From assembly GCA_049324415.1 (NCBI GenBank), contig JBMOOS010000042.1, positions 93,920 to 157,919 of the forward strand: 64,000 nucleotides of DNA, read 5' to 3'. The translations under genes were made by a program, and so were the position numbers. How positions within the stretch are numbered: the stretch's first letter is position 1; every line of letters begins with the position of its first letter. The notes below the pieces were generated by a model. The model ran no database searches. It was not told the origin of the DNA and saw only the letters and a list, made by a program, of their open reading frames with translations. Below are positions 3,407 to 61,824 of this stretch, piece after piece. The DNA comes from Pseudomonadota bacterium (GTDB lineage Bacteria > Pseudomonadota > Alphaproteobacteria > Sphingomonadales > CAKZYD01).

Positions 3407-3445
3407 ACAAAGCCACGCCTCATCACGGAAAAGGAAGCACAATCC

Positions 3446-3871
3446 ATGGCCGAACTCGAATCCGGGTCGATTTCCCCCCACACCGCGCTGATTTACCTGA
3501 TGGTGGTGGTGGCGGGGGTCGACCGCGACCTGTCCGACAGCGAGCTCAAGCGCATCGGCCAGATCGTGCGCAACATGGCGATTTTCGAAGGCTATAATCA
3601 TGAAATGCTGGTGCCGGCGGCGGAGGACTGCGCCCAGATCCTCAACGAGGATGGCGGCCTCGAGGCTGTCCTTGCCCTGGTCTATGGCGCCTTGCCCGAC
3701 CATGTGCTGGAGACTGGCTATGCCATCGCCTGCGATGTCGCCGCCGTCGATGGCGCGCTCAGCCAGGAAGAGCTGCGGGTTCTCGAAATGATCCGTCACA
3801 AATTCCAGATCGACCGCTTGGTGGGGGCGGCGATCGAGCGGGCGACCGCCGTCCGCTATCGCACGCTTTAG
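3446..3871 (+). CDS. TerB-like (tellurite-resistance TerB family) small protein
   Basis: 141 aa with two D-x-x-L/S-x-x-E-L helix repeats (VDRDLSDSELKRIGQIV and VDGALSQEELRVLEMI) typical of the TerB fold. Lies 40 nt downstream of the helicase. Confidence 0.6.
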   Translation: MAELESGSISPHTALIYLMVVVAGVDRDLSDSELKRIGQIVRNMAIFEGYNHEMLVPAAEDCAQILNEDGGLEAVLALVYGALPDHVLETGYAIACDVAAVDGALSQEELRVLEMIRHKFQIDRLVGAAIERATAVRYRTL

Positions 3872-4114: not shown

Positions 4115-4624
4115 ATGAAACGCCTCGGCTTATGGCGTCACGCCAAGTCTTCCTGGGACGACCCTTCCCTTGGTGATATCGATCGCCCGCTCAATGACCG
4201 TGGCAAGCGTGACGCGCCGCGCATGGCGCTGGCCATGGAGGAAATGGGCCTGCACTGGGACCTGGTGCTTTGTTCGCCCGCCCGGCGGGCGTGGCAAAGC
4301 GGCGCGGCCTTGGTGCCGGCCGGGGCTTGCGTTGAACTGGTCCCGGCCCTTTATCTGGCGTCGGCGACAACCCTGGTGGCGCTTATCCACGCCTTGCCGG
4401 ATGGCAAGCAGAGCGTTCTTATCATCGGCCATAATCCCGGGCTTCATGACCTGGCGCAGCGGTTGACGCAAAATGACAGCGGCGCGGCGCGAAAGGCCTT
4501 GGCGATGAAATTTCCCACCGCCGCCCTCGCCGTCATCGCCTGCAAGACCGCGCATTGGTCCGATATCGCCCCTGGACACTGCCAGCTTAGCCATTTCGTG
4601 CGGCCACATGATCTTAAGGGGTAA
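4115..4624 (+). CDS. histidine phosphatase family protein, SixA-like
   Basis: N-terminus MKRLGLWRHAKS (RHxxS catalytic His motif), later IIGHNPG, and ~170 aa size typical of SixA-type phosphohistidine phosphatases. Confidence 0.7.
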   Translation: MKRLGLWRHAKSSWDDPSLGDIDRPLNDRGKRDAPRMALAMEEMGLHWDLVLCSPARRAWQSGAALVPAGACVELVPALYLASATTLVALIHALPDGKQSVLIIGHNPGLHDLAQRLTQNDSGAARKALAMKFPTAALAVIACKTAHWSDIAPGHCQLSHFVRPHDLKG

Positions 4625-5564
4625 CGCCAACCAAGGCCGTGGCGAAGGCGGCGGCGTCAAAGGCCTGTAAGTCATCGATCTTCTCGCCAACGCCGATGGC
4701 CAGGATGGGAAGCCGGTATTTCTCCGCCGCCGCCACCAGCACCCCGCCCCGCGCCGTGCCGTCGAGCTTGGTCATGGCAAGGCCGGTGACCCCCGCCACC
4801 TCGCCAAAGACGGCGATTTGGTTAAGGGCATTCTGCCCCGTCGTCGCGTCAAGGACGAGGAGCACGTCATGGGGCGCTGTCGGGTCCTGCTTGGCAAGGA
4901 CGCGGCGAATCTTGGCCAGCTCGGCCATCAGCGTCGCCTTGTTCTGCAAGCGCCCGGCGGTATCGATGAGAAGGACATCGATGCCTTGCGCCCTGGCCGC
5001 TTCATAGGCGTCATAGGCGAGCCCCGCCGGGTCGCCGCCGACCTTCGCGGGAACGAAGGCGGCGCCGGCGCGGCTTGCCCAAACGCCGAGCTGCTCGATG
5101 GCGGCGGCGCGGAACGTATCGCCCGCGGCCAGCATCACCGACTGCCCATCGTCCTTGAGACGCTTGGCGAGCTTGCCGATGGTGGTGGTCTTGCCGGTGC
5201 CGTTGACCCCGACGATAAGGACCACATGAGGCTTGCCCTTGCCCTTGAAAACCAGCGGCCGGGCGAGCGGCGCCAGGGTTTCGGCCACCACTTCGGCAAG
5301 GGTGGCGCGCACCTCGGCGGCGCTGATCGCCTTATCGAGCCGGCGGGCGGCCAGACGCTCGCACACCCGCGCCGCCGTCGCGACGCCGAGATCGGCGGCG
5401 ATCAGCACCTCTTCCAACTCTTCTAATGCCGTGGCATCGAGCTTGGCCTTGGTGAAAAGGGCGCCGATGCCCTCCGACAGCCGGGCGCTCGACTTGGCAA
5501 GGCCCTGGCGCAGCCGCGCCGCCCAGCTTGGCTTGGCGCGTGGTTGGGATGGGGACTGCGTCAT
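4614..5564 (-). CDS. ftsY: signal recognition particle receptor FtsY
   Basis: SRP GTPase motifs GVNGTGKTTTIGKLA, DTAGRL and TKLDGTARGG. ORF is open to 5798, but GC3 drops upstream, so I start at ATG 5564 (MTQSPSQP). Confidence 0.9.
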   Translation of the reverse strand: MTQSPSQPRAKPSWAARLRQGLAKSSARLSEGIGALFTKAKLDATALEELEEVLIAADLGVATAARVCERLAARRLDKAISAAEVRATLAEVVAETLAPLARPLVFKGKGKPHVVLIVGVNGTGKTTTIGKLAKRLKDDGQSVMLAAGDTFRAAAIEQLGVWASRAGAAFVPAKVGGDPAGLAYDAYEAARAQGIDVLLIDTAGRLQNKATLMAELAKIRRVLAKQDPTAPHDVLLVLDATTGQNALNQIAVFGEVAGVTGLAMTKLDGTARGGVLVAAAEKYRLPILAIGVGEKIDDLQAFDAAAFATALVGVTP

Positions 5565-37294: not shown

Positions 37295-37579
37295 GGCGTT
37301 TGTTCCTCTTGCCTTATTCCTCTTGCCCGCGGGCCTTGCCCTGGGGGCGCCGCCGCGCGCCCCGGCCAGGCCGTCATGATCTTGCGCTGCACTATTGCGC
37401 CAATCACCGGCGCAATCAACTCCGCTCATGGTCTGCCCCCAGGCTGGGCCCAAATTTATTCGAATGGCACCATTTGGCGATTTTTAGCGGAACTCCCCGC
37501 CGTTGTGTGGTGGCGACTTCCACTCGGCCGCGACGCACGATATGGTTGCAGAAAATCAAGGGACTAAAGGGGGCGGAAA

Positions 37580-39580
37580 GTGCGGCGGCATATTCTCGCT
37601 ATTTTGCTGATCGGCGGCGCAATAATTACAGCTTCTGGCGGTGCGGGGGCGCAAACGCAGGCGCCGCCGCGCCTTGACATCGCGCTTTTCGCGCGGCTGC
37701 CCACCATGTCGCAGCTCCAAATCTCGCCGCAAGGCACGTATTTTTCCTGGGTGACCCAGCATAACGGCCGCAAGCATGTGGTCATCAAGCCGCGGGATCC
37801 AGCGCGGGGGCAAGCCCTCGCCATTCCGCCTGGCGAGGCAGCGGAGATCCAATGGACCCAATGGGCCAATGACGATTATCTTTTGATTTCCTATGGCTAT
37901 GACAGCCAGAGAATAGAGTTTCGCCGCGAGCGGGCGCGCGAGACCCGGCTTGTCTCGGTCGAGGCGGCGACGGGAAAAGTCGTCAACATCGTAAAGCCGA
38001 AAGCCACCAATCGCATAGGCAGCAGGCTGCAAAAAAACGAAATACAAGCCCAGTACCAAGACAGCGTGGTCGACTGGTTGCCCGACGAGCCCAACCATAT
38101 CTTGCTGGAATTAAACGAAGATCAGGACTTCGCCAGCGGTTTTGTCATTCGCAAGATCGATATAAGGTCAGGGCAATATAACATCGTTGCAAGCCGGCGC
38201 TGGGTCAATTCCTGGATGGTCGATCGCAGCCATCAACCCCGCCTGGGCCTGGGCCTCATCCTGGTGGGGGATCAACAAAAGAAATACATGGCCTATCGGA
38301 ACCCCGGCACCGGCGATTGGGTGGAGCGCAAGGGCGAGGACGTGCCCATGGTCACCTTGCTCGATTTTTTCGCGGACCCGCGCTATGCCTATGCCTGGGG
38401 AAGCTCCGAAGAAGGGCGGCAAGGCATCCTTAAATACGACTTGGTCGCGGAGCGGCTGGTGGAATGGGTCTATATTCACCCCGAATATGACGTGGAGGAT
38501 GTTCTTCTCGATCCCATAGACGGGAGGGTGATCGGCGCCCAGTATATCGCGGACAGGCCGACCAATGTCTATTTCGACGATAAGCTGCAACAAAGGCAGC
38601 AGGTCCTTGATAGGGCGCTTGTCAGCTACTCCAACGACATCGTCAGCAGCACGCGGGATGGAAAGCTGCATATTGTTCTTGTCTCCAGCGATGTCGAGCC
38701 CGGCATATTCCTGCTGTACGACGAGCCGGGCCGGCAGTTGACCGAGCTGGGCGCCGTCCGGGAAAAAATCCTGCCCGAGCATTTAAGCCCGATGACCGAT
38801 GTCACCTACAAGGCACGCGATGGGCTTGAGATCCACGCTTTCCTGACCGTGCCCAAGGGGCGGGAGGCGAGGAATCTTCCCACCGTCATCCTCCCCCATG
38901 GCGGACCCTGGGCGCGGGACTATAAGCGCTTCGATTATCTGGTGCAGTTCCTTGCCAATCGCGGCTATGCGGTGTTGCAGCCCAACTTCCGCGGCTCCAC
39001 CGGCTATGGCGCGGCGTTCAAGGATGCCGGCCACAAGCAATGGGGAGGGGCCATGCAGGACGATGTAACCGATGGCACGCAGTGGCTGATCGACCAGGGC
39101 ATCGCCGATCCGCGGCGCATCTGCATCGTGGGCGCTTCCTATGGCGGCTATGCCGCCCTGATGGGGGCGGTGAAGACCCCGGATTTGTTCCGCTGCGCCG
39201 TCAGCCTCAATGGGGTTTCCGACCTTTTCGACCTGATTGCCGACGATCGGCGGACGATCGGCCTGCGCGATTGGATCGCCATGATCGGCGATACGCGCGA
39301 GGACAGGGAAAGCCTTGAACAAAATTCACCCGCCCGGCAAGCGGACAAAATCAAGGTGCCGGTTCTTTTGTTCCACGCCAAGGATGATACCCGCGTCGAT
39401 GTCGAGCAGGCGCGCAACATGGCGCGCGCGCTTAAAAAGCGGAACAAGCCGGTGACGCTCGTCGAGGTGGAGGAGGGCGACCACAGCCTGGAAATCGAAT
39501 CAGCGCGGCTTGCCTTTCTCAAGGCTCTGGAAGCGTTTCTGGAGGACAATCTCGGCCCCGAAACGGCTTTGCCGGGCTAA
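37580..39580 (+). CDS. S9-family serine peptidase (prolyl oligopeptidase/DPP type), secreted
   Basis: Signal peptide, N-terminal beta-propeller-length region, GASYGGYAA (GxSxGG), and later D and H (EGDHSL). Confidence 0.85.
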   Translation: MRRHILAILLIGGAIITASGGAGAQTQAPPRLDIALFARLPTMSQLQISPQGTYFSWVTQHNGRKHVVIKPRDPARGQALAIPPGEAAEIQWTQWANDDYLLISYGYDSQRIEFRRERARETRLVSVEAATGKVVNIVKPKATNRIGSRLQKNEIQAQYQDSVVDWLPDEPNHILLELNEDQDFASGFVIRKIDIRSGQYNIVASRRWVNSWMVDRSHQPRLGLGLILVGDQQKKYMAYRNPGTGDWVERKGEDVPMVTLLDFFADPRYAYAWGSSEEGRQGILKYDLVAERLVEWVYIHPEYDVEDVLLDPIDGRVIGAQYIADRPTNVYFDDKLQQRQQVLDRALVSYSNDIVSSTRDGKLHIVLVSSDVEPGIFLLYDEPGRQLTELGAVREKILPEHLSPMTDVTYKARDGLEIHAFLTVPKGREARNLPTVILPHGGPWARDYKRFDYLVQFLANRGYAVLQPNFRGSTGYGAAFKDAGHKQWGGAMQDDVTDGTQWLIDQGIADPRRICIVGASYGGYAALMGAVKTPDLFRCAVSLNGVSDLFDLIADDRRTIGLRDWIAMIGDTREDRESLEQNSPARQADKIKVPVLLFHAKDDTRVDVEQARNMARALKKRNKPVTLVEVEEGDHSLEIESARLAFLKALEAFLEDNLGPETALPG

Positions 39581-41061: not shown

Positions 41062-41946
41062 TCAATTGGCATGAGCGCGGGCGGCGATCGCCTGGCCGAG
41101 CGCGATGAGGCGCCGCGCTTCGGCGACGTGGAGGTTTTCCACCAGCCTGCCGTCGAGGACGGCGACCCCCTTGCCGGCGGCCTCGGCGGCCTCGAATGCG
41201 GCGATTTGCCGCCGCGCCAGTTCAAGGGCGGCGGGCGACGGCGCGAACACTTTGTTGGCCGCCTCGATCTGCTTGGGGTGGATGAGGGTCTTGCCGTCGA
41301 AACCTAGTTGCGCGCCCTGGAGGCAGGCCTCGTGAAAGCCGGTGGCGTCCTCAAGGTCGAGATGCACCCCGTCAAGGGCGGCAAGACCCGCCGCGCGGGC
41401 GGCAAGAAGGCACCAGGACAAGGCGGTCATCACCGGCAGGCGGTCGGCGCTGTGGCGGGCGCGCAGGTCCTTCACCAGGTCGGACGTGCCCATGACCAAG
41501 CAGGCAAGGCGGGGGTGCGCCTGGGCGATCTCCTCGGCCTTGAGCACCCCGCGCGGCGTCTCGATCATGCACCAGATGGCCATGGTAGCGCTTGCCCCTC
41601 CTTCGGCCATCGCTTCGCCAAGCGCGGCGACCATGGGCGCGTTTTCCACCTTGGGAAGAAGGATGGCGTCGGGTCCGGCGGCGCAAGCGGCGGCGACATC
41701 GGCCCGCCCCCAAGGGCTATCGAGGGGGTTGACGCGAACGATGACCTCGCGCGGGCCATAGCCGCCGGCGGCGACGGCGGCGCATACTTGCGCCCTCGCT
41801 TGCTGCTTGGCGTCGGGGGCGACGGCATCCTCAAGGTCGAGGATGAGGGCGTCCGCCGGCAGGTCTTTGGCTTTTTCAAGGGCGCGGGGGTTGGCTCCTG
41901 GCATGTAGAGCACCGAGCGGCGGGGGCGGGGTGGGGTCATGGACAA
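41062..41946 (-). CDS. HpcH/HpaI aldolase / citrate-lyase beta (CitE)-like CoA-ester lyase
   Basis: RRSVLYMPGANPRALEKAKDLPADALILDLEDAV... is the characteristic CitE-like N-terminus; 294 aa. Confidence 0.75.
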   Translation of the reverse strand: MSMTPPRPRRSVLYMPGANPRALEKAKDLPADALILDLEDAVAPDAKQQARAQVCAAVAAGGYGPREVIVRVNPLDSPWGRADVAAACAAGPDAILLPKVENAPMVAALGEAMAEGGASATMAIWCMIETPRGVLKAEEIAQAHPRLACLVMGTSDLVKDLRARHSADRLPVMTALSWCLLAARAAGLAALDGVHLDLEDATGFHEACLQGAQLGFDGKTLIHPKQIEAANKVFAPSPAALELARRQIAAFEAAEAAGKGVAVLDGRLVENLHVAEARRLIALGQAIAARAHAN

Positions 41947-42085
41947 TCCTTCCCATGGGCGACCTCATCAGCCCCTACACGGATTACCCGATGACGGCAA
42001 GCTGCCGCTCTCGCCGCCGCTATGGCAAACGTTGTTTGCCTGTCACGGCTGGGTTAGGCTGGCGGCGGTTGCGAGGGGCCATGTC

Positions 42086-43039
42086 TTGATCTGGGAATTC
42101 ATCGTCGGTCTTATCATCCTTACCCTGGGCTCCGAAGCGCTGTTGCGGGGCGCGGCCGGGGTCAAGCGGCGCTTCGGGGTGCCCGACTTCATCATCGGCC
42201 TTGTCATCGTCGGTTTCGGCACCTCCTTGCCCGAGCTGGTGATTGGCTTCGGCGCGGCCAGCGTCGGGGCCGAGGAATTGGCCCTTGGCATGGTGATGGG
42301 CTCCAATATCTTCAACCTTCTCGGGGTGCTTGGCCTTGCCGCTCTCATCGCTCCCCTTGCCACCGACGAACGGGCGTTGAAGCGCGATGGCCTGTTCATG
42401 GCCGCCGCCGCCCTAAGCTTGGCCGCGCTTTCCATGACCGGCCGCCTCGACCGCTGGGGCGGTCTTCTTCTGCTCGCCGGTTTGGCGGTTTACATCGCCA
42501 CGGTGTTCATCGATGAAAAACGCCTGCCCGTGGGGCGCGTCAGCCTCTACCGCGCCAAGGCCGATTTCGCCCGCCATGGCCCACGCGCGCCGTGGCTTGC
42601 CGGCCTTTTTCTTTTGGCCGGCGGCCTCCTGGTGACGCTGGGCGCCGGCTGGGTCATAGAAGCGACGGTGGGCCTTGCCTTCGACCTCGGGGTGGGCGAG
42701 GACGTGCTGGGCCTCACCCTCGTCGCCATCGCGACGTCCCTGCCGGAATTCCTCGTCAGCATCATCGCCGCCCAGCGCCGCCAATATGGCGTTGCCTGCG
42801 GCAGCATCCTTGGCTCCAATATCTTCAATATTTTCGGCGTCGGCGGGCTCATCGCGCTGGTTTTCCCCGCCGTCTTTCCCACCCGCCTGGCCGGACCCGA
42901 CATGGCGGTGCTGGTGGGCGTCAGCCTCATCATCCTCATCGCCCTTGCCACCGGCCGGCGTTTGAGCCGCGGCGAAGGCGGCCTTGCCCTTGCCGCTTAT
43001 GCCGTCTATGGGCTGTGGCGCACCGGTGCCTTTGTCTAG
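42086..43039 (+). CDS. CaCA-family calcium/sodium antiporter (YrbG-like), paralogue 1
   Basis: Alpha-repeat motifs GFGTSLPEL and AIATSLPEF with ~10 TM segments. The ORF is open from 41939, but I start at in-frame TTG 42086 to give ~318 aa, matching the paralogue. Start is uncertain. Confidence 0.8.
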   Translation: MIWEFIVGLIILTLGSEALLRGAAGVKRRFGVPDFIIGLVIVGFGTSLPELVIGFGAASVGAEELALGMVMGSNIFNLLGVLGLAALIAPLATDERALKRDGLFMAAAALSLAALSMTGRLDRWGGLLLLAGLAVYIATVFIDEKRLPVGRVSLYRAKADFARHGPRAPWLAGLFLLAGGLLVTLGAGWVIEATVGLAFDLGVGEDVLGLTLVAIATSLPEFLVSIIAAQRRQYGVACGSILGSNIFNIFGVGGLIALVFPAVFPTRLAGPDMAVLVGVSLIILIALATGRRLSRGEGGLALAAYAVYGLWRTGAFV

Positions 43040-43276: not shown

Positions 43277-44224
43277 ATGGCATATGTGCAAATTCTCGCC
43301 GGCTTTATCCTGCTGTTGGGCGGCTCGACCATGCTGGTCTCCGGCGCGGTGGCGGTGGCCCAGCGCTTCAGGGTTTCCCCGATGGTGATCGGCCTCACGC
43401 TGGTCGGCTTTGGCACCTCGACTCCTGAATTGTCGGCGTCCTTGGGGGCGGCGCTCCTTGGCTCCAGCGGCATCGCGGTCGGCAATGTGGTCGGCTCCAA
43501 CATCGCCAATATCCTCCTCATCCTCGGTCTTGCCGCCTTGTTGCGGCCGATCCCGGTCGATGCCAAGGCGTTTCGCCGCGACGGCCTGGTGCTGCTGGCT
43601 GCCACCTTGCTGCTGATGGCGCTGGGCTGGCTGGGGATGGTCGAGCGCTGGCTAGGCCTTGCCATGGTGGCGGCGCTTGTCCTTTATACCGTCCATGCGA
43701 TACGGGCGGAGCGGCGCGCGGCGCGCAGCGACAGCGTCTATGTCCATGAAGCGGCGGTCGCCCCGCTGCCCCAGCGCAACCTCGCCCTTGCCGGCGCGGC
43801 GGCAGTCGCCGGGCTGGCCGCGCTCATCGGCGGCGCCGACCTCCTGGTGGAAGGCGCCGTCGTCCTGGCGCGCGCCTGGGGGGTCTCGGAAAGCGTCATT
43901 GGCCTGACCATCGTCGCCGTCGGCACCTCGTTGCCCGAGCTCGCCACCTCGATCGTTGCCGCCTGGCGGGGAGAGACCGATGTCGCCTTCGGCAATGTGG
44001 TGGGCTCCAACATCTACAACGCCCTCGGCATTCTCGGGGCCACCGCCCTGGTCCACCCCATCGCCTACCCCGCCGACATCGCCCAGCTTGATAATTGGCT
44101 GATGCTGGCGACGACTTTGCTGCTCCTTGTATTCGCCCGCTCCCGGCTCACCATTTCCCGCTGGGAGGGCGGCGTCTTCCTCGCCGCCTACCTCGTCTAT
44201 GTCGCGGCGATGGCGCTGCGCTGA
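43277..44224 (+). CDS. CaCA-family calcium/sodium antiporter (YrbG-like), paralogue 2
   Basis: GFGTSTPEL and AVGTSLPEL alpha-repeats; 315 aa. Confidence 0.85.
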   Translation: MAYVQILAGFILLLGGSTMLVSGAVAVAQRFRVSPMVIGLTLVGFGTSTPELSASLGAALLGSSGIAVGNVVGSNIANILLILGLAALLRPIPVDAKAFRRDGLVLLAATLLLMALGWLGMVERWLGLAMVAALVLYTVHAIRAERRAARSDSVYVHEAAVAPLPQRNLALAGAAAVAGLAALIGGADLLVEGAVVLARAWGVSESVIGLTIVAVGTSLPELATSIVAAWRGETDVAFGNVVGSNIYNALGILGATALVHPIAYPADIAQLDNWLMLATTLLLLVFARSRLTISRWEGGVFLAAYLVYVAAMALR

Positions 44225-44242
44225 AGAGTACCTGGTCCACGG

Positions 44243-44917
44243 CTACAGAAGCCGGCTTTCCTCTGCCCGCTCGGGTATGAGCCGCTGGGAATGGTTGGCG
44301 TAGGTCGCCCAGGACGGATAATAGCTTTCGCTCTGGTCGCCCCAGGCCATCCAATTTCGGCGCTGGCCTCGTGCGAACAGTTCTAGATAAGGCCCCGGAC
44401 TGCACGCCTCGATAATGCCGTAAAGCTCGTCTGGTTTGCGCGAATGCTCGCGTTTTCGTGATTTGATGATGTTGACCTGCCGGCGCCCAGGGGCAAGTGT
44501 GCGTGCGCTCTTCCCCCGCACGCCGAACAGCACCAACTCGGTCGTGTTACGGAAATAGAAGCCAACGCCGCGTCCATCCGGTCCGCCGTCCTTACGGATC
44601 TTGTGCCAAACCAGGTTGGTCTTGTATTCAAACCCCCAGGCCCGCATGACCGTCAGACCTTCGACCAGCAAGGCGTTTGGCACCCATAAATAGAGATGCG
44701 CCACGGGTGCGAGAAAAGACTTGACCGGAAGCCCAGCGATCTCGGGAAGTGTCATGGTCACATAGCGGTTGAGGCGCTTATGTTCCGGGGCCATCTTGCC
44801 GGTACGGTTCTGGAACTGCCACGGTGGATCGGCCAGCACCGTAGCAAATCTACACCCGCGCAGCGCGTCGGTCAGATTAGCTGAAGACATTGAGTTTTCC
44901 GCGCCGCTCATACTCAT
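44243..44917 (-). CDS. MT-A70-family DNA methyltransferase (type II R-M, beta-class)
   Basis: VLADPPWQF (DPPW) near the N-terminus and LELFARGQRRNWMAWGDQ near the C-terminus. ATG 44917 overlaps the endonuclease stop (ATGA). GC ~57% in a hand-counted 60-nt stretch. Confidence 0.8.
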   Translation of the reverse strand: MSMSGAENSMSSANLTDALRGCRFATVLADPPWQFQNRTGKMAPEHKRLNRYVTMTLPEIAGLPVKSFLAPVAHLYLWVPNALLVEGLTVMRAWGFEYKTNLVWHKIRKDGGPDGRGVGFYFRNTTELVLFGVRGKSARTLAPGRRQVNIIKSRKREHSRKPDELYGIIEACSPGPYLELFARGQRRNWMAWGDQSESYYPSWATYANHSQRLIPERAEESRLL

Positions 44918-45501
44918 TCCTCTACGAGAAGCCTTTTGGTTATCCCGAACACTAGCAGTGGACACCCCGCCCCGCCACCGCCTTCTATACGCGGCAAAAG
45001 TTTCGACATGTGCGTGGTCGAATTGCCATAGGACTTGCCGCGCCCCAGGCTGTTGAACGTTTCCTGCAACTCGTCGCTCCGCGTCACGATGATGCCGACC
45101 GACACCGCACGCAGATCAAACAGCAGCCGGAAATTATTAAGGTCCCGATCATAGAACGGATCCTTGTTGTTCCATTCGATCTCGAGAGCCACGCCGTTCT
45201 TGAAACAGTCAACCTTGTGTGTCGGCGACTTGAAATTCCGCTCGTCGACCTTGATCGAGGTCTCGAACTGGCGCTCCGTCCATCCGCGGGCGCACAAAAA
45301 GTCGTCGATCCATTTCGCGATCGGGGACTTGTTGCCACCGCCCGCCATGATCCATGCCATCGGGATCCGAAAGGTCTCTAGCATGGCGAGCACGTCCCGC
45401 CACTCGTTCGGAAAGTCGCCGTGCATGATCGTACAGGCATGCTTCCATTCGTACACTTCATAATTCTGCCGGATTTGCGGCGGGATTAGATCGGTCCCCA
45501 T
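44914..45501 (-). CDS. type II restriction endonuclease, BglII/BstYI-like fold
   Basis: HKVDCFKNGVALEIEWNNKDPFYDRDLNNF has the D-x8-E-x-E spacing and flanking pattern of the BglII catalytic core (D84-x8-E93-x-Q95), followed by VGIIVTRS. GC is 45-48% in two hand-counted stretches. The start may be 45546 or ATG 45501. Confidence 0.65.
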   Translation of the reverse strand: MGTDLIPPQIRQNYEVYEWKHACTIMHGDFPNEWRDVLAMLETFRIPMAWIMAGGGNKSPIAKWIDDFLCARGWTERQFETSIKVDERNFKSPTHKVDCFKNGVALEIEWNNKDPFYDRDLNNFRLLFDLRAVSVGIIVTRSDELQETFNSLGRGKSYGNSTTHMSKLLPRIEGGGGAGCPLLVFGITKRLLVEE

Positions 45502-45508
45502 CGGTATT

Positions 45509-47335
45509 TCACCAGCCGCACTGGCGGTTCTTGTTCTCATTTTCAAGCCAGGTCATCAGCGGCTGGAAATAGGCGATGATCGCCGCCCCGTCCATTTCCC
45601 GGCTGCCGGTGAAGGCCGCCAGCGCTTCCGGCCAGGGCTTGGACGCGCCCATTTCCAGCATGGCGTTGAATTTCTCGCCCACCGCCTTGTTGCCGTAGAT
45701 CGAGCAGCGGTGCAGCGGTCCTTCCCAGCCAGCGGCCTCGCACGCCGCCTTCTGGAACTGGAATTGCAGGATATGGGCAAGGAAATAGCGCATATAGGGG
45801 GTGTTGCCGGGGATATGGAATTTGGCGCCGGGGTCGAAATCGGCTTCCGAGCGCGCGACCGGCGGGGTAATGCCCTGATACTGGGTGCGCAAGGCCCACC
45901 AGGCGGCGTTGTAGTTTTCCGGCGTCACCTCGCCGGCAAACACCTGCCAGCGCCATTTGTCGACGAGAAGGCCAAAGGGCAGGAACGCCACCTTATCGAG
46001 GGCGCGGGCGAGGAGAAGGCCGATGTCGGCATCGGCGCTGGGCATCTTGTCGCGGCTGAGAAGGCCGATTTGGACGAGATATTCCGGGGTGATGGAAAGC
46101 GCCACCATGTCGCCGATGGCTTCGTGGAAGCCGTCATTGGCGCCGGTGAGGTAAAGCGGATCCTGGTTCTGATAGGCGCGCTGATAGAAATTATGCCCCA
46201 ATTCGTGATGGATGGTCTCGAAATCGTCGGCATTGACGAGGGTGCACATCTTGATCCGCACGTCGTTCTTGTTATCAAGGTCCCAGGCCGAGGCATGGCA
46301 GACCACTTCTCGATCGCGCGGCTTGGTGATGAGGGAGCGCTCCCAGAAGGTCTCGGGCAAGGGAGCAAAGCCAAGCGAGGTGAAAAAGCCCTCGCCGGTC
46401 TTCACCATTTTGACCGGGTCATAGCCGGCCTTGACCAGAAGCTCGGTAAGGTCATAGCCCGGCCCCGAGGTCTTGGGCGCCACCAGGGGATAGATGTTGC
46501 CCCACTGCTGGGCCCACATATTGCCGAGAAGATGCGCCGGGATGGGTCCGTCCTGGGGCACCAGGCGGGTGCCGTAATAATCGCCGAGCTTGGCGCGGGC
46601 ATAGCAATGGAGCTGGTCGTAAAGCGGCTTTACCTGCGCCCATAGTTTATCGGTCAAGGCAGCGAATTCGTCCGGGTCCATGTCGTAGTTGGAGCGCCAC
46701 ATCTGGCCCAAATCGGCATAGCCCAGCTCGCGCGCCCCTGCATTGGCGATTTCCACCATGCGGACATAGTCGGGCTTCATCGGCAGCGAAATCTCGCGCC
46801 AGGAGGTCCACATCTCCTCGAGCGCCGCCGGGTCGCGCTCGGTCCCCATCAGGGCTTCAAGCTCGTTGCCCGGCTTCACCTCGCCCTTGTAGCGGCCCTT
46901 GCCCTTGCCATAGGTGGACTGGAGCCTGGTGGCGATGTCGGAAAGCTCTTGCGCGGCGCCCGGCGTGTCCGGCGCCGGCAAGGTGATGCCAGCCTTCAGC
47001 ATCGCCATCTTGCGCGCCAGGTCCGGCGGCAGGTCAAGGTCCTGGTATTTCTTGGTCTCGTTGGCAAGCTTGACCGCCAGCTCGGTGAATTCGGCGCCGG
47101 AGCGCGACGCCAGCCAGTCGGTGTCCTCGGTGATGAAATTGGCGTTCACCCAGGCCACCCGGGCAGCATATTCCGACATGGCGTAAAGCTGGCTTTCGGC
47201 GTCCTTCATGAAGCCTTGCGCCTCGGCGAGCGTCGGAGCGGCATCGGCCACGCTTGCTTCGTCGCCCTTGCCGCACGCCGCCAGCCCGAGGGCGGCAATG
47301 AGGCCGAGCGCCGTCGTCGATTTGAAATGCGGCAT
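45509..47335 (-). CDS. M2-family zinc peptidyl-dipeptidase (angiotensin-converting-enzyme homologue), lipoprotein
   Basis: HHELGHNFY (HExxH) plus downstream HEAIGD glutamate ligand. Lipobox LGLAAC; 608 aa. Confidence 0.85.
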
Positions 47336-47476
47336 TATCGTCTCCTCAAACTTATTGTTCCGTGGTTATTGCCATAGGGAGCTTAACCCCCAGCCGTGGC
47401 GGCGATGGAAGCCGCCAGCGCGCCGTCTGTCAACTGCCTTGCGGCGGATGCCGCATGAATTTACATCTGCTGCTCC

Positions 47477-49003
47477 ATGAAGCTCAGCGTCACCATAAGC
47501 GATGCCCTTCCCCCCCTTGCCTGGCTGGCGATGGCGGAACCGGGCCAAAATAGGGTCGCGCTTACCGCCGGGCGCGGGGTTGAGGTCGGCGATGGCTGGT
47601 GGTTCGAAGGGGTCTGGGCCGGTGATTTTGGTCAAGCCGGGTTCGGGCAAAGCGATGCCGTGTGCGGCTCGGGCGGGCGCATCGAGGGCAATATGGTGCG
47701 TTTCGTGCCGCCCACCCATAGCCTTGAAGCGCTTTACTGGACGGCGCGCCAAGGGCGATTTTGGGTCAGCAATTCCCTCGCCTTTCTTCTGGAGGCGCTG
47801 GGCGATGCGCCAGACCTTGCCTATGCCCGTTATAGTCCACTGTTCGACAGCATTGTTTATGGCCTTAAATGGTATCGGCCAACCATCCCGACCCAAAAAG
47901 GCGCGGTGCTCCGCCGCGTCCACGACCCGCTGGTGATGGGGCGAGAAGGGAGCGAGCGCCAGGCGCGCGCGCCGCTCGCGCCGCCCTTCGCCGCTTTCGC
48001 CCACTATCAGGCCTATCTTGAGGCCCGCGCCCATGCCTTGGTCGAAAATGGGCGCGCGCTTACCCGGAAAAGCGTCTTTTCGCCGCTCACCGCGATTTCC
48101 TCGGGCTATGATTCGCCGGCGGTGGCGCAGGTTGCGCGCAAGGCTGGCTGCACGCGGGCCTTTAGCTTCACCACGGCCCGCGAAAGCGTGGGCCGCGGCG
48201 CGCTCGATGATTCCGGCATCGCCATTGGCCGCGCCCTTGGCTATGAGGTCGCGGCGCTCGACCGGCAGCATTATCGCAGTGCGGCCATCGGCACGGGGGG
48301 CGAGTTCTTCGCCACCGGCATGCCAGGGGAGGAGTTGTTGTTTGCCCCCTTCGAAGAACTTTTCGCCGGGGCGTTGTTTTTCACGGGCTTTCATGGCGAT
48401 AAGGCCTGGGACAAAGCCAATGGCTCTTTCCATATTCCACTGCTGCGTGGGGATTCCAGCGGCTCGAGCTTTACCGAGTTCCGGCTGCGCGTCGGTTTCG
48501 CCCATTGCCCGCTGCCCTTTCTCGGCGCCCTGCGGCAGGCCGATTTGACCCGCATTTCCAACGCGCCAGAAATGCGGCCCTGGTCGGTGGGCGGCGCCTA
48601 TGACCGCCCGATTGCGCGCCGCCTCGCCGAGGAGGCCGGGGTGCCGCGGGCGCTGTTCGGGCAGGTCAAGAAGGCGGTCAGCACGCCGGTGCACGAAGGC
48701 CGGCAGATGAGCCCTGCTGGCGAGGCCGCCTATCGCCGCTTTCTTGCCTCCCACGGCCTTGATCCGCGGCGTCCCTCGCTCACCGCTCCGTTACGGGCGC
48801 TTGCCGATCAAGCCTGGCGCCGCGTCTTCTGGCGGCGCAAATGGATCTTGAAGCGCACCGGCCTCGATGTCCTGATGCTGGATCGGTTCATGCCGACGCC
48901 GCTCCTCAACCCCGGCAATCTTGCCGCCTTCCAGCCGTGGAAGCGCTATTTCTTCGCTTGGGGCTTTGCCGAGACAAGGGCCCGCTACGAGGCCGCGCGA
49001 TGA
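47477..49003 (+). CDS. hypothetical protein with degenerate PP-loop (asparagine-synthase-like ATP pyrophosphatase superfamily?)
   Basis: 508 aa. VFSPLTAISSGYDSPAVAQVARKAG resembles the SGGxDS PP-loop with following helix. Composition is far more protein-like than the antisense ORF. No SD sequence before the ATG. Confidence 0.6.
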   Translation: MKLSVTISDALPPLAWLAMAEPGQNRVALTAGRGVEVGDGWWFEGVWAGDFGQAGFGQSDAVCGSGGRIEGNMVRFVPPTHSLEALYWTARQGRFWVSNSLAFLLEALGDAPDLAYARYSPLFDSIVYGLKWYRPTIPTQKGAVLRRVHDPLVMGREGSERQARAPLAPPFAAFAHYQAYLEARAHALVENGRALTRKSVFSPLTAISSGYDSPAVAQVARKAGCTRAFSFTTARESVGRGALDDSGIAIGRALGYEVAALDRQHYRSAAIGTGGEFFATGMPGEELLFAPFEELFAGALFFTGFHGDKAWDKANGSFHIPLLRGDSSGSSFTEFRLRVGFAHCPLPFLGALRQADLTRISNAPEMRPWSVGGAYDRPIARRLAEEAGVPRALFGQVKKAVSTPVHEGRQMSPAGEAAYRRFLASHGLDPRRPSLTAPLRALADQAWRRVFWRRKWILKRTGLDVLMLDRFMPTPLLNPGNLAAFQPWKRYFFAWGFAETRARYEAAR

Positions 49004-57863: not shown

Positions 57864-59942
57864 ATGTACGCGTACAAAGCACTTCTCAGCCTCACCGCCG
57901 CCACCGGCGTCTTTGTCTTGGCCCAAGCGGCCAATGCGCAAACCATCGACTATGGCTCGCTCGAAATGCTGTTCGACGAGCCGGTGACCACCAGCGCCAC
58001 CGGCAAGCCGCAGCGCGCCGGCGACGCGCCGGTGACGATGGAAATCATCACCGCAGAGCAGATCCGCCGCTCCGGCGCCAGCGACATTCCGGAAGTCCTG
58101 CGCTTCGTCATCGGCATGTCGGTGCAGCGCTCGACCCTGGGCGGGGTCGATGTTGGCATGCGCGGCTATAACGGCGCCTTCAACGAGCGCATCCTGGTGC
58201 TGGTCAACGGCCGGCAGGCCTATCTCGATCATTTCGGCTATATCGAATGGGCATCGCTGCCGGTGGCGCTTGAGGAAATTCGCCAGATCGAGGTGGTGAA
58301 AGGCCCCAACACCGCGCTTTATGGCTTCAACGCCACCAGCGGGGTGATCAACATCATCACCTATAACCCGCTTTATGACACCAATGTGCAAGTGACGGCG
58401 CGGGGCGGCAATCTCGACTATCTGGAAGCGTCGGCGAACTTCACCAAGAAAATCTCCAACCGCCTGGGCGTGCGCGTCTCGGCCGGCGGCTGGCGCTCGA
58501 CCGATTTCACCACCCACCTCCACCACTTTCAGGAAAACGCCCTGCGCGACGACGCCAAGCGCAATTTCGTCGCCGGCGAGGTGATCGGCCAGGTGACCGA
58601 CAATATCCAGGCGGGCTTTGAGGCGACCTATAGCGAGGTCGACCAGGGCGAGCTGTTTTTCGACTACACATTTTCCTACAGCACCTATGAATCGAAGTCC
58701 TTCAAGGCCTTCGTCGCCGCCGAGACCAAGGCGGGGCTGACGGAAGTGAAAGCCTATCGCAATTCGACCGACCTGGTGAACACCTCGACCCTTGCCGGGG
58801 AAAGCCAGTTCATCACCATCCCGGTCGACACCAGGGTCTCGGTGGCCAGCATCAGCCATCTTTTCAAGGTGGGCGCTGATCACGCCTTCCGCGGCTCGGT
58901 CGAATACCGCAATAACGTCAACCCCACCTTCCCGGCCAATATCGGCGAGCTGCATTTCAAAAGCTGGTCGTTCAGCGGCATGTGGGACTGGGCCGTCAAC
59001 GACAAGCTCAGCTTCATCGCCGCCGGCCGCTACGACACGCTGGGCATGACCCGCACCGGCGATTTTCTCACCGGCCTGGTCTTCGACAACGACGACTTTG
59101 CCCGCCAGATCAAGGAATGGAGCCTCAATACCGGCCTTGTCTATAAGCCAACGGAGGAAGACACCATTCGCCTCACCATGGGCAAGGGGGTCGACCTCCC
59201 CTCGGCGACCGAATTCGGCCTCATGAAGCAGGTGGCGCAAACCGTGTTCCAGATCGGCAATCCGCTGCTCAAGACCTCGCGGGTATGGAATTTCGAGCTG
59301 GGCTATGACCATAGCATCGAGGCGATCGATGGTCAGTTCCGCAGCGCCCTTTTCTATTACAAGGCGAGCAATCTCCAGAATATCCAGCAGAACGAGCAAG
59401 AGGATCTGCCCGGCGGCATCGACGTCTTCGTGGCGGAAAACTCCCTCAACACCCGGGCCCTTGGTTTCGAGACCGGGCTTAAAGGCAAGGCGGGCGAGAA
59501 TATCGACTGGTTCGTCAACTATCTCTTCGTCGATGTGAAAGATACTTCCGGTGAAGACGATGGTGGCGCGGAAGCCCTTGGCCGGCTGGAAGCGGTGGAT
59601 TTCCAGAACAACGCCCCCAAGCACACCCTCAATTTCGGGCTTGGCTATAAAAAGGATAAGTTCAGCGTCGATCTTTACAACTCGCTCACCTCCTCGCGGC
59701 GGCAATTGCGCGGCAACCGCCGGCTGGTGATCGACGATGGCGGCGATGAGATCGAGATCATCGAGCTCATCTTCGTTCCCATCAGCACCCAATTGAAGGT
59801 CAACGGCCGCGCCGCCTATCAGGTGACCGACAACCTCACCGTGGCGATGGAAGGCCAGGGCCTCACGCAAAAAGACTTCCGCGAGACTTCGCTCGCCAAG
59901 ATCGAGCGGCGCTGGACCATATCCTTGAACTACCGGTTCTAG
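57864..59942 (+). CDS. TonB-dependent outer-membrane receptor
   Basis: Signal peptide, plug-domain motifs (IEVVKGPNTALYGFNATSGVINIIT), a long beta-barrel and the terminal ...SLNYRF. Confidence 0.88.
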   Translation: MYAYKALLSLTAATGVFVLAQAANAQTIDYGSLEMLFDEPVTTSATGKPQRAGDAPVTMEIITAEQIRRSGASDIPEVLRFVIGMSVQRSTLGGVDVGMRGYNGAFNERILVLVNGRQAYLDHFGYIEWASLPVALEEIRQIEVVKGPNTALYGFNATSGVINIITYNPLYDTNVQVTARGGNLDYLEASANFTKKISNRLGVRVSAGGWRSTDFTTHLHHFQENALRDDAKRNFVAGEVIGQVTDNIQAGFEATYSEVDQGELFFDYTFSYSTYESKSFKAFVAAETKAGLTEVKAYRNSTDLVNTSTLAGESQFITIPVDTRVSVASISHLFKVGADHAFRGSVEYRNNVNPTFPANIGELHFKSWSFSGMWDWAVNDKLSFIAAGRYDTLGMTRTGDFLTGLVFDNDDFARQIKEWSLNTGLVYKPTEEDTIRLTMGKGVDLPSATEFGLMKQVAQTVFQIGNPLLKTSRVWNFELGYDHSIEAIDGQFRSALFYYKASNLQNIQQNEQEDLPGGIDVFVAENSLNTRALGFETGLKGKAGENIDWFVNYLFVDVKDTSGEDDGGAEALGRLEAVDFQNNAPKHTLNFGLGYKKDKFSVDLYNSLTSSRRQLRGNRRLVIDDGGDEIEIIELIFVPISTQLKVNGRAAYQVTDNLTVAMEGQGLTQKDFRETSLAKIERRWTISLNYRF

Positions 59943-60039
59943 AACCCATGGGTGAGGTCACGAGATGGACCATGCGAAGCAAAAACAGCGGGAGAGGGGG
60001 CATCCTCCTCTCCCTCACCTAAGCCAAAGGATGTCACCG

Positions 60040-61824
60040 ATGTTGCGTATGAATGATTTGCCCCTGCTCATCAAAGTCAGCCTGGCGCCAGCCATTGCCT
60101 TTGTCATTCTCCTCGCCCTGGCGCTGTTCGCCAATTTCGGCTTGACCCGCGCTTCCGGCGGGGTCGGGCAAATTGTCGATAATGACATGAAGATCACCCG
60201 CCAGCTCGCCGCCGCCGATAGCCAGTTCAAGGAACTGGACGGCGATCTTTATCGCCTTATCACCCTTTACGCCGCGGGCGATAAGTCGGTCGAGCTTGCC
60301 ACTGGCGTCAAGGCGCTCAAGGACCATCTGGCCGAGGTGCGGGGCAGGCTCGACCATTTGAAAACCGACTTTTCGGGGCAGGTCGATGAAGACAATTTGA
60401 ACGCCATCGAGGCCGAGCTCGTCAAATATGGCGAGGCCATCGATGTCGTGACCTCGATGCTGGAGATCGATTTTGCCAGCGCTGTCTCCTTCATCCAGCC
60501 GTTTCGCGAGAACGCCGCCAAGGTGGCATCGACCATCGAGGCCTTGGCGATCCAGGCGCAGGAGCGCTCGGATGAGCGCGCCGCCACCATTCAGGAAAGC
60601 GTTTCCAGCATCACCATCACCTTTCTCGTGACCACGGCGGTCGCCGGCCTCATGGTCGCTGCCCTCGCTTGGCTCATCGGGCGCAAGACCAGCACCTCGA
60701 TCACCGAGATCGCCAAGGCCACCGCCCGCCTCGCCGATGGCGACCGGGCGGTTGACGTCAATGCCCTTGCGCGCAAGGACGAGCTGGGAACGGTGGTCGA
60801 CGCCTTGCGGCAGTTCCGCGAGCAAATGCTGGAGAACGATCGCCTGCAGCAAGAGCAGCAAGCGATGCGCGCCAAGGCGGAAGAAGAAGAAAAGCGGCGC
60901 CGCGAGGAAGCCCGCCAGGCCGAGCAAGCGCAGCGCGCCCAGGAAGAGGAGCGGCGGCGCAAGGCCGAGGAAGAGAAAAAGGAGATGCTGCGCAAGCTCG
61001 CCGACGCCTTTGACCTCTCGGTCTCTTCCGTCGTCAAGGTGGTGCAGCAGTCGGCCGGCGACCTCGATACCCGCTCCGCCGGGGTCAAGGACCGCGCGGT
61101 CGATAATGAAGGTCTGTGCCGCTCGCTTTCCAGCGTCGCCGATGACGTCTCCGGCGGCATGCAGGTGGTGGCGACGGCGACCGAGGAGCTCTCCTCCTCG
61201 ATCAGCGAAATCTCGCGCCGGGTGAACGAGTCCTCGACCGCGGTGAAAAGCGCGGTTGAGCGCACCCGCGAGACCAACAACGCGGTGCTCGAGCTTGCCT
61301 CCACCGCCGAGCGCATCGGCCAGGTGGTGACGCTGATCAACGACATCGCCTCCCAGACCAACCTCCTCGCGCTCAACGCCACCATCGAGGCGGCGCGCGC
61401 CGGTGAGGCCGGCAAGGGCTTTGCCGTGGTGGCGAGCGAGGTGAAGAACCTTGCCGGCCAGACCGCCAAGGCGACCGACGAGATCGCCGAGCAGGTGGAA
61501 AGCGTGCAGTCGGTCACCGATATCGTGGTGAAATCGATGAAGCTCATCGGCGAGACCATCGACCAGGTGAACGGCATCGCCGCCGATATCGCCGCCGCGG
61601 TCGAGCAGCAAGCCAAGGCGACCGACGAGATCGCCCACACCGTGTCGGCGGCGACCAGCAAGATCAGCACCTTGTCGGGAAGCGCCGAGGAACTCACCCG
61701 TTCCTCCGTCGACAATGGCGATGCCGCCAGCAACCTCATCGAGATCGTCGCCGCGCTGCGCCAGCAGTTCGATGAATTGCAGAAGGAGGCCAACGGCTTC
61801 GTCGAAAAGATCCGCGCCGCCTGA
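60040..61824 (+). CDS. methyl-accepting chemotaxis protein (periplasmic helical sensor, HAMP, charged coiled-coil insert, MCP signalling domain)
   Basis: Two TM segments, a HAMP-like segment ([18 protein letters not shown]...[10 protein letters not shown]) and the highly conserved tip [35 protein letters not shown] 60040 follows AAAGGA by 8 nt; the track ORF starts at 59965. Confidence 0.88.

Follow-up and report, generated by a model that had tools for sequence, protein, structure and literature searches.

Between the convergent genes of an M2 peptidase and a Na/Ca exchanger lies a minus-strand cassette of two genes with a lower GC content than its surroundings, which raises the questions of what the pair encodes, which DNA sites it acts on, how it came to stand there and how it is expressed with almost no non-coding DNA on either side. 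We examined these questions in a 64-kb stretch of DNA from a metagenome-assembled genome (hereafter the window). The cassette, comprising an endonuclease gene (R) and a methyltransferase gene (M) at 44243-45501, is in all likelihood a complete and intact two-gene type IIP restriction-modification (R-M) system of an ordinary and widespread kind that was known before.

Layout and identity of the two genes

R and M are separate genes on one strand, M starting 2 nt past the R stop, and their pairing was seen again at all homologous loci examined (Table 1). The peptidase gene ends with a TGA at 45511..45509, which is followed by 7 nt and then by the ATG of R at 45501, where only a weak Shine-Dalgarno-like GGTGA was seen. 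An earlier, sequence-only reading of this DNA had preferred the same start, which stands, and had also named a TTG at 45546 that would overlap the peptidase gene by 38 nt; we rejected the latter, since the homologues are 195-197 aa long and align from ATG 45501. The same reading had R and M joined by an ATGA stop/start overlap. This tetranucleotide does exist (44917..44914), and an ATG start at 44917 would give an M of 224 aa, but it is probably not the functional start, as the Shine-Dalgarno sequence GAGGA (44922..44918) lies 0 nt from ATG 44917 and 6 nt from ATG 44911. Because of this spacing, the NCBI gene call (44911; P0121, 222 aa) and the likewise +2/+3 spacing of R and M in the nearest relatives, M probably starts at 44911. 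Of six homologous cassettes examined, five have a GGAGGA-like element at the corresponding position; it is missing from the Methylococcus copy L090, which has a divergent R.

Table 1. Features of the cassette and of the host genes on either side, in window coordinates
Feature	Position	Strand	Basis
R gene, 195-aa BglII/BstYI-family type II restriction endonuclease (predicted)	44914..45501	-	PF09195, fold, motifs
M gene, 222-aa MT-A70 (beta-class) N6-adenine DNA methyltransferase (predicted)	44243..44911	-	PF05063, PADLOC, homologues
Catalytic block VDCFKNGVALEIEW, D98-x8-E107-x-E109, R residues 97-110	45172..45213	-	Homologue alignment
DPPW (motif IV), M gene	44819..44830	-	Sequence reading; homologue alignment
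Shine-Dalgarno GAGGA for M, within the R 3' end	44918..44922	-	Sequence reading
7-nt spacer, peptidase stop to R start (upstream insertion junction)	45502..45508	-	Sequence reading
18-nt spacer, M stop to convergent Na/Ca exchanger stop (downstream insertion junction)	44225..44242	-	Sequence reading
M2 (ACE-like) metallopeptidase, flanking host gene	45509..47335	-	PF01401, 737 bits
Na/Ca exchanger, flanking host gene, convergent with the cassette	43277..44224	+	PF01699, TIGR00367

Non-coding DNA between the flanking genes is confined to the 7-nt and 18-nt spacers, which bears out anatomically the earlier description of a cassette with neither a controller (C) gene nor promoter space of its own. 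A C gene is absent, no small HTH controller ORF lies upstream of R or overlaps it, and there is no room for one. Beside the MT-A70-type cassettes in other hosts examined a C gene was absent as well; cassettes with an annotated 'DNA adenine methylase' did contain one.

The R protein matches Pfam family PF09195 with 157.1 bits (cut-off 26) over profile positions 1-163 of 163. When its AF2 model (pLDDT 81.5, pTM 0.82) was searched with Foldseek, the top matches were the BstYI structures 2p0j, 1vrr and 1sdo (E 3e-7 to 7e-7, probability 1.0, TM 0.57-0.62), BamHI came next (E 3.5e-4) and no fold besides the BstYI/BamHI type had E<0.1. Searches of PDB sequences with single-sequence phmmer and with a narrow profile (67-75% identity) returned nothing relevant. 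A broad profile, built from 50%-cluster representatives, matched BstYI (E 3e-5) with the D...ExE/Q block aligned, so that the VDCFKNGVALEIEW block of R corresponds to TDFVKDRVAIEVQF in BstYI. The D-x8-E-x-E core noted earlier is present in R as D98-x8-E107-x-E109; E76, D98, E107 and E109 are invariant in 39 R homologues, and all 68 columns invariant among these homologues are kept in the window protein (68/68). On the evidence of sequence and model, R is predicted to be a BstYI-like PD-(D/E)XK endonuclease with intact catalytic motifs, and would be expected to cleave DNA.

M matches PF05063 with 104.5 bits (cut-off 23.9) over profile positions 1-172 of 172 and the PADLOC model MTase_II with 282 bits, and its relatives in the PDB are MT-A70 proteins and METTL3. 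The DPPW motif was found as first described; it is invariant in 20 homologues, and the other invariant columns of M are kept too. M is 76% identical to AAU90596.1 of Methylococcus capsulatus Bath (216 aa, 'adenine-specific DNA methyltransferase') and 70% identical to the methyltransferases of phages NrS-3 and Lo5R7ANS. The profile scores of both proteins and the BstYI fold match uphold the type II R-M identity first proposed for the pair. Each of the two has >8,000 database proteins at E<=0.001, the best ones listed being 67-82% identical. The exact R protein is already in NCBI, named BglII/BstYI family REase, and the NCBI naming of both proteins is already correct. Neither R nor M is represented by a model in NCBIfam. 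R is also without a match among the models of PADLOC-DB 2.0, and a tool based on this database would therefore probably label such loci as orphan methylases.

Such a label would be apt if the endonuclease were inactive or silent and the locus in effect a solitary adenine methyltransferase. In one Methylococcus genome (L091) the upstream BglII-family ORF is indeed split in two, and the missing PADLOC model for R and the weak GGTGA before it point the same way. R in the window, however, is full length and free of frameshifts and stops, with every family-invariant column kept, including the catalytic E76, D98, E107 and E109, and we consider a loss of endonuclease function very unlikely.

Known relatives and the probable recognition site

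The Nitratiruptor phage NrS-3 has the same R-then-M order, with identities to the window proteins of 67% for R and 70% for M and with no C gene between the two. Its cassette is phage-borne, in a Campylobacterota host, with a GC content of ~38% and 12 nt between R and M, whereas the window copy is chromosomal and stands directly behind a host gene. In M. capsulatus Bath the 76% identical M is MCA0246, which we took AAU90596.1 to be by its size and name; it follows an R gene, downstream of the co-directional core gene clpX. The partner R has 266 aa, is 29% identical to the window R and overlaps M by 20 nt. MCA0246 has been regarded as not lying near a predicted REase (PMC13390346).

No PDB sequence other than that of BstYI (PDB 1SDO, 1VRR and 2P0J; cuts R^GATCY) was matched by the family profile, and BstYI is also the best structural match of R. 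The two enzymes share the D-x8-E-x-(E/Q) block and are of similar length (203 aa for BstYI, 195 aa for R), but they are only 14-18% identical, and BstYI has Q at the third catalytic position, where the window R has E. In BamHI the third catalytic position is E. BglII belongs to the same endonuclease family, PF09195, and recognizes a GATC-core site; it was not reached by the R profile, and it was absent from the fold matches at E<=0.001 and from the 50 listed. In the BglII system (bglIIC/R/M) the endonuclease is accompanied by the controller protein C and by a methyltransferase of another family, which modifies cytosine at N4; the window system, by contrast, lacks a C gene, and its m6A methylase is of the MT-A70 family. 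The RMC of Acinetobacter baumannii A118 (H0N27_10820-30) also includes a BglII/BstYI-family endonuclease, and its RGm6ATCY modification was shown via deletion of the cluster (PMC10287943). It is arranged differently from the window cassette: it includes a gene for an HTH controller, and its methylase, probably Dam-like, bears the annotation 'DNA adenine methylase'. An A118-like layout of C, R and a convergent 'DNA adenine methylase' was seen on the Dyadobacter plasmid NZ_CP099632.1.

The sequence-only reading had held that the specificity of the pair cannot be inferred. This proved too cautious: homology points to RGATCY with m6A, since M shares 70-76% identity with methyltransferases of M. 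capsulatus and of the Nitratiruptor phages NrS-2/3, and RGm6ATCY is part of the methylome in both cases. In M. capsulatus Bath, RGm6ATCY is modified at 99.98% of 5,438 sites, and RGATCY is also the REBASE prediction for MCA0246, an assignment matched to the methylome and not to a knockout (PMC13390346). In a Nitratiruptor lysogen of phage NrS-3, RGATCY was 100% methylated, and the closest characterised REBASE enzyme to the phage methylase is M.Dor12838I (RGATCY, m6A) (PMC9723563). Judged from these homologues, M most likely makes RGm6ATCY on both strands, and incoming DNA is most likely cut by R at unmethylated RGATCY or at some of the hexamers that it comprises. The specificity of R could be narrower than RGATCY, because the Methylococcus partner R is so distant from the window R (29% identity).

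We also considered another specificity for the system, be it AGATCT only (BglII-like), GGATCC or an unrelated site. The family PF09195 spans both BglII (AGATCT) and BstYI (RGATCY), the identity of R to BstYI is low, and among the four RGATCY hexamers AGATCT shows the strongest depletion in the window (4 versus 11.4 expected), although the z is about -2.2 and many motifs were tested in a sample of 64 kb. The authors of the NrS study remarked that RGATCY methylation also covers AGATCT (PMC9723563). Against a different site, M homologues of 70-76% identity co-occur with full RGATCY methylation in two unrelated organisms, among characterised REBASE enzymes the nearest one methylates RGATCY, the R of NrS and that of the window share 67% identity, and R has to cut within sites protected by M. 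A specificity other than RGATCY thus seems unlikely. In the window as a whole, RGATCY was observed 28 times versus 36.5 expected, which is no significant depletion and a point against RGATCY, and every palindrome was present, with no decisive depletion, so that such counts do not assign a specificity here. The RGATCY methylases of A. baumannii A118 and C. salexigens (DNA adenine methylase/GATC-methylase-like) and of R. blasticus (m4C) were set aside as having no bearing on the family of M, as were reports of RGm6ATCY in Burkholderia, Azospirillum and Sinorhizobium, which we could not link to gene sequences. The value of attaching a probable specificity, RGm6ATCY, to a very common and poorly labelled R-M pair is mostly one of annotation and leaves current understanding unchanged.

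An insertion between convergent host genes

The cassette, horizontally transferred in our reading, is an insertion between two convergent genes, those for the M2 peptidase and the Na/Ca exchanger, because the four closest relatives keep the flanking order without the R-M genes. In these relatives, whose peptidases are 81, 81, 76 and 74% identical to that of the window, the spacers between peptidase and exchanger measure 63, 63, 46 and 10 nt, respectively. The order of the peptidase, the convergent Na/Ca exchanger and HpcH was seen in the 81, 81 and 76% relatives, where the contig was long enough; the two 81% relatives have both tandem exchangers, like the window, and in L095 the gene order runs on to cupredoxin and FTR1. 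The contig of L001 stops within the exchanger gene. With four empty-site relatives, the earlier description of a cassette wedged in behind a core gene is confirmed, and neither R nor M was found at any of the 80 peptidase loci of relatives (0/80).

The base composition is that of a newcomer in direction, if less starkly than first described. R has a GC content of 56.1% and M of 58.8%, and the cassette as a whole (57.7%, against 64.3% for the window) falls in the lowest 0.8% of same-length windows. The 45-48% versus 72-78% of the sequence-only reading overstated the contrast, being taken from extremes only: single 60-nt stretches go down to 43% in R and up to 78-83% in the neighbours, while the means of the neighbouring genes are 63-70%. 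Cassette GC was likewise below that of the flanks in six other hosts. The remaining low-GC spots of the window are ordinary genes.

The spacers differ also in structure. The 63-nt spacers of two relatives contain a strong hairpin and a T-run (in L093, a 12-bp hairpin with a U-run, z -2.7), whereas at the window junctions no fold was better than that of shuffled sequence and no terminator-like structure was found, the 18-nt downstream spacer giving z +1.7/+1.8. The hexamer CCGTGG occurs both in this 18-nt spacer and in the L093 hairpin arm, a match too short for interpretation.

That the cassette was ancestral at this locus and was lost in the relatives is extremely improbable. The relatives are fairly distant, with peptidases 74-81% identical, which leaves some room for losses; yet the cassette is absent from all four closest relatives and from all 80 genome loci examined, its GC and GC3 are below those of its neighbours, the strong terminator-like hairpin is kept in the spacer of two relatives, and the nearest homologues of R and M are in unrelated phyla and phages. 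In keeping with mobility, homologous cassettes elsewhere stand between unrelated core genes and also on two phage genomes. The flanking host genes enclose no transposase or integrase gene, an attC would not fit into the 18-nt 3' spacer, and comparison by eye of the cassette ends revealed no shared motifs or flanking repeats, with nucleotide similarity only in the coding sequences and unrelated flanks. The locus is a clean natural case of an R-M unit that entered between convergent genes with next to no non-coding DNA around it.

Expression and a proposed scenario

With the R start 7 nt behind the peptidase stop and no terminator-like structure between them, the peptidase mRNA probably extends by read-through into R and M, as the sequence-only reading had suggested. 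This view is strengthened by the absence from the window of the hairpin and T-run seen in the spacers of the relatives. A scan of 43900-47600 for the sigma-70 consensus gave no minus-strand match, although the peptidase's own promoter is expected there.

Alternatively, the same R-M system may have a promoter of its own inside the 3' coding end of the peptidase gene (or a leaderless start) and be expressed independently of the peptidase. In the cassettes of Rhizobiaceae and Rhodobacteraceae a TTGCCA...TATATT-like element precedes R by 35-60 nt, which shows that a promoter of its own is available to the family, and alphaproteobacterial promoters fit the Escherichia coli consensus poorly, so that the empty sigma-70 scan weighs little. 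However, the similarity between cassettes is coding-only, so that the unit brought no upstream promoter along; the last 100 nt before R are peptidase codons conserved with the relatives; nothing terminator-like intervenes between peptidase and R; and the nearest R relative (L096) likewise stands 29 nt behind a co-directional host gene. We regard a separate promoter as possible but doubtful, and favour read-through from the peptidase.

In the scenario that we propose, the pair would have been horizontally acquired as a bare two-gene unit, with neither a C-protein gene nor mobility genes, and would have taken the place of the short spacer that set the convergent peptidase and exchanger genes apart. 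The peptidase transcript would read through into R and M, and M would be translationally coupled to R via the Shine-Dalgarno sequence in the R 3' end. M would then methylate RGm6ATCY, and R would cleave unmethylated RGATCY of incoming DNA. The locus could be used for testing the expression and establishment of C-less R-M systems.

A more general and speculative idea, which we put forward tentatively, is that the MT-A70/BstYI-like cassette spreads as a promoter-less two-gene unit that lands directly behind an expressed host gene and replaces its terminator. It would be transcribed, and possibly translationally re-initiated, as the 3' extension of a host operon, and a low, host-dependent level of R together with Shine-Dalgarno-driven M would take the place of a C protein in safe establishment. 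If this is true, the window, with its 7-nt gap, and the nearest R relative, in Ferrovibrio, with a 29-nt gap after gshB, are two independent examples.

Composition of the predicted R-M pair

Two intact ORFs on the minus strand, R and M, occupy window positions 44243-45501 (table) and have every feature of a type IIP R-M system that can be tested from sequence. The Pfam Endonuc-BglII profile (PF09195) matched R over its whole length (157 bits). An AlphaFold2 model of R, built from an alignment of 39 homologues (pLDDT 81.5, pTM 0.82), had significant matches in the PDB to BstYI (three entries, E 3e-7 to 7e-7, probability 1.0, TM ~0.6) and BamHI (E 3.5e-4) only, so that the predicted structure supports an endonuclease fold. 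Neither the single R sequence nor a narrow profile reached a match among the sequences of solved structures. A broader profile made from 50%-cluster representatives matched BstYI (E 3e-5), placing HKVD98CFKNGVALE107IE109W of R opposite TDFVKDRVAIEVQF of BstYI. Residues E76, D98, E107 and E109 are invariant across the close family, which bears out the BglII-like catalytic core (D98/E107/E109) proposed in the sequence-only reading. R is thus a predicted BglII/BstYI-family endonuclease by all the marks available.

M was likewise recognized, as had been proposed, as an MT-A70 protein (PF05063, 104 bits; PADLOC MTase_II, 282 bits) with its DPPW at 44830..44819 and every invariant family column kept, the full predicted signature of an MT-A70 m6A methyltransferase. 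Its nearest solved structures are the ciliate MT-A70 proteins and METTL3, and the eukaryotic MT-A70 clade is nested in a prokaryotic radiation that includes BglII-type R-M methyltransferases (Iyer et al., 2015; PMC4738411). No PADLOC-DB 2.0 model matches R, while the adjoining M scores well, and such loci would be labelled orphan methylases. NCBI already has exact matches to both proteins, on the same 211-kb 'Pseudomonadota bacterium' MAG contig, as 'BglII/BstYI family type II restriction endonuclease' and 'MT-A70 family methyltransferase'; databases therefore name both correctly, and assign no specificity.

Coordinates of the cassette, neighbouring genes and related loci
Feature	Sequence	Position	Strand	Remark
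R	window	45501..44914	-	195 aa
M	window	44911..44243	-	222 aa; alternative ATG at 44917
Na/Ca exchanger	window	41939-43039	+	tandem paralogue
Na/Ca exchanger	window	43277-44224	+	tandem paralogue
508-aa ORF	window	47477-49003	+	divergent from peptidase
NrS3_08, R homologue	phage NrS-3 (L106)	2501-3088		LC545444.1
Cassette	phage Lo5R7ANS (L107)	1326-3755		R then M
R homologue locus	Dyadobacter plasmid (L108)	2278-4322		NZ_CP099632.1
BglII-family R	Methylococcus (L090)	4220-5020
BglII-family R	Methylococcus (L091)	4308-5020		split into two ORFs

The ATGA overlap of R and M described previously (44917..44914) is present; as the M start, however, it is less likely than 44911, because the Shine-Dalgarno GAGGA (44922..44918) directly abuts ATG 44917 and lies 6 nt from ATG 44911, NCBI protein P0121 (222 aa) starts at 44911, and M begins 2-3 nt past the R stop in the two nearest relatives. 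Whichever start is used, R and M are translationally coupled. For R, the favoured start was retained, as homologues are 195-197 aa long and align from this ATG; the same evidence speaks against the alternative TTG at 45546.

The BglII system has a C protein and an N4-cytosine methylase, from which the window cassette differs in its MT-A70 m6A-type M and in having no C gene. The absence of a controller, already remarked on, sets the locus outside the C-protein-controlled R-M systems. The closest described system is that of phages NrS-2/3 and the closest solved enzyme is BstYI.

Insertion at the peptidase/exchanger junction

R begins 7 nt beyond the TGA stop (45511..45509) of an M2 peptidase gene (608 aa), and 18 nt separate the end of M from the stop of a convergent Na/Ca exchanger gene. 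A peptidase scan with one genome per species returned 80 loci, none with R or M alongside. The closest peptidases were P0248 and P0249 (81% identical), P0251 (76%) and that of locus L001 (74%). The order peptidase, convergent exchanger pair and HpcH/CitE-like gene is common to the window and relatives L093 and L094; L095 has one exchanger gene followed by HpcH, cupredoxin and FTR1, and the L001 contig stops within the exchanger gene. Between the convergent stops lie 63 (L093), 63 (L094), 46 (L095) and 10 nt (L001). In the window, the cassette (1,259 nt), bordered by 7 and 18 nt, takes the place of this spacer. The cassette is therefore an insertion, wedged behind the peptidase gene as first read, and the comparison with relatives lacking it, suggested at that time, supplies the evidence.

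In the L093 spacer, a GC-rich hairpin of 12 bp precedes a U-run (z = -2.7), in the form of a predicted intrinsic terminator for both genes, and a comparable hairpin and T-run was seen by eye in that of L095. Neither window junction was more stably folded than its shuffled versions (z = 0 to +1.8).

The GC content was 56.1% in R, 58.8% in M and 57.7% in the cassette compared with 64.3% in the window, and the cassette ranks among the lowest 0.8% of stretches of its length; GC3 was 69-75% as against 79-85% in neighbouring genes. The low GC reported earlier thus holds, and extreme 60-nt stretches exist (43-48% in R, 78-83% in neighbours), but the contrast was overstated, the real gap being ~7 points. 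GATC sites number 11.1 per kb in the cassette, 2.5 times the window-wide 4.5 per kb, and R alone has 11 of them. Other lowest-GC stretches (~37350-39100 and ~58550-60600) are ordinary genes encoding an S9 prolyl oligopeptidase-family protein, a TonB-dependent receptor and a methyl-accepting chemotaxis protein.

The exchanger paralogues are ~40% identical to each other; the pair is kept in L093 and L094, with a single copy in L095. Upstream of the peptidase, L093-L095 have a GFA-family gene in place of the 508-aa ORF, which may thus be a second lineage-specific acquisition; this ORF had no Pfam, NCBIfam or PADLOC matches. Despite 76-81% peptidase identity and conserved local order, locus GC is 51-55% in L093-L095 and 64% in the window, so the composition of otherwise syntenic genomes diverges strongly.

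Expression and predicted specificity

With 7 nt upstream of R, a promoter could fit only within the peptidase coding sequence, in agreement with the sequence-only reading. Rhizobiaceae and Rhodobacteraceae copies have 90-260 nt upstream with a TTGCCA...TATATT-like element, and the nearest R relative (Ferrovibrio, L096) lies 29 nt behind a co-directional gshB. Given the 7-nt gap, the lack of terminator-like structure and the Ferrovibrio placement, the simplest model would be read-through transcription from the peptidase promoter, and translation might re-initiate beyond the peptidase stop. A consensus promoter scan of the minus strand (43900-47600) found none, though the peptidase's own promoter is expected within this interval. 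The good Shine-Dalgarno of M, inside R, and the weak GGTGA of R would favour M over R.

Specificity had been considered beyond inference, but homology permits a moderately confident prediction of RGATCY. AAU90596.1/WP_010959610.1 of M. capsulatus Bath (216 aa, 'adenine-specific DNA methyltransferase') shares 76% identity with M and corresponds, judged by size (651 bp) and name, to MCA0246. REBASE predicts RGATCY for MCA0246, and the nanopore methylome of this strain showed RGm6ATCY modified at 99.98% of 5,438 sites (PMC13390346). Independent evidence comes from the NrS-3 lysogen, in which 100% of RGATCY was methylated, and the NrS phage methyltransferase is closest to the characterized M.Dor12838I (RGATCY, m6A) (PMC9723563). 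BstYI, the structure nearest R, is likewise an RGATCY recognizer; the Methylococcus partner R is just 29% identical to the window R. Three GATC sites in the cassette are RGATCY, so the predicted target occurs several times within the cassette itself. Avoidance of RGATCY in the window was not significant (28 observed, 36.5 expected); AGATCT occurred 4 times against 11.4 expected.

Distribution and possible vehicles

R-M pairs of this kind are already known and very common, and the sole mildly unusual aspect here is the terminator-replacing, promoter-less placement. R and M each had >8,000 database matches (E<=0.001), and identities among the best 120 listed were 67-75% for R and 70-82% for M. 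The R family forms 1,197 clusters at 50% identity. Named hosts among the matches listed were Rhodobacteraceae, Rhizobiaceae, Ferrovibrio, Methylococcus, Omnitrophota and Bacteroidota. Each homologous host locus examined had R then M, with a usual spacing of a 4-nt overlap or 2-3 nt gap, and C and mobility genes were absent from these loci. Flanking core genes vary by host (yajC/serS, DinB/YebC, clpX/iscS, gshB/methyltransferase, PNP/PRT), nucleotide similarity among copies (~68%) is restricted to coding sequences, and cassette GC lay below that of the flanking DNA in each of the six further hosts examined.

The same pair is carried by the Nitratiruptor temperate phages NrS-2/3 (R 67%, M 70% identical to those of the window) and Mesorhizobium phage vB_MloP_Lo5R7ANS (R 60%, M 70%), which makes phages one plausible vehicle. 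In Lo5R7ANS, a possible delivery route into Alphaproteobacteria, the cassette lies directly past the integrase gene and ahead of tRNA-Leu. On the Dyadobacter plasmid, the R homologue (58% identical) is arranged differently, overlapped by an HTH controller gene and accompanied by a convergent gene (396 aa) that carries the annotation 'DNA adenine methylase', so the same endonuclease clade pairs with two unrelated methylase families. The NrS-3 R homologue (67% identical) is labelled 'methyltransferase' in GenBank and correctly termed a BglII homologue in the accompanying paper (PMC9723563).
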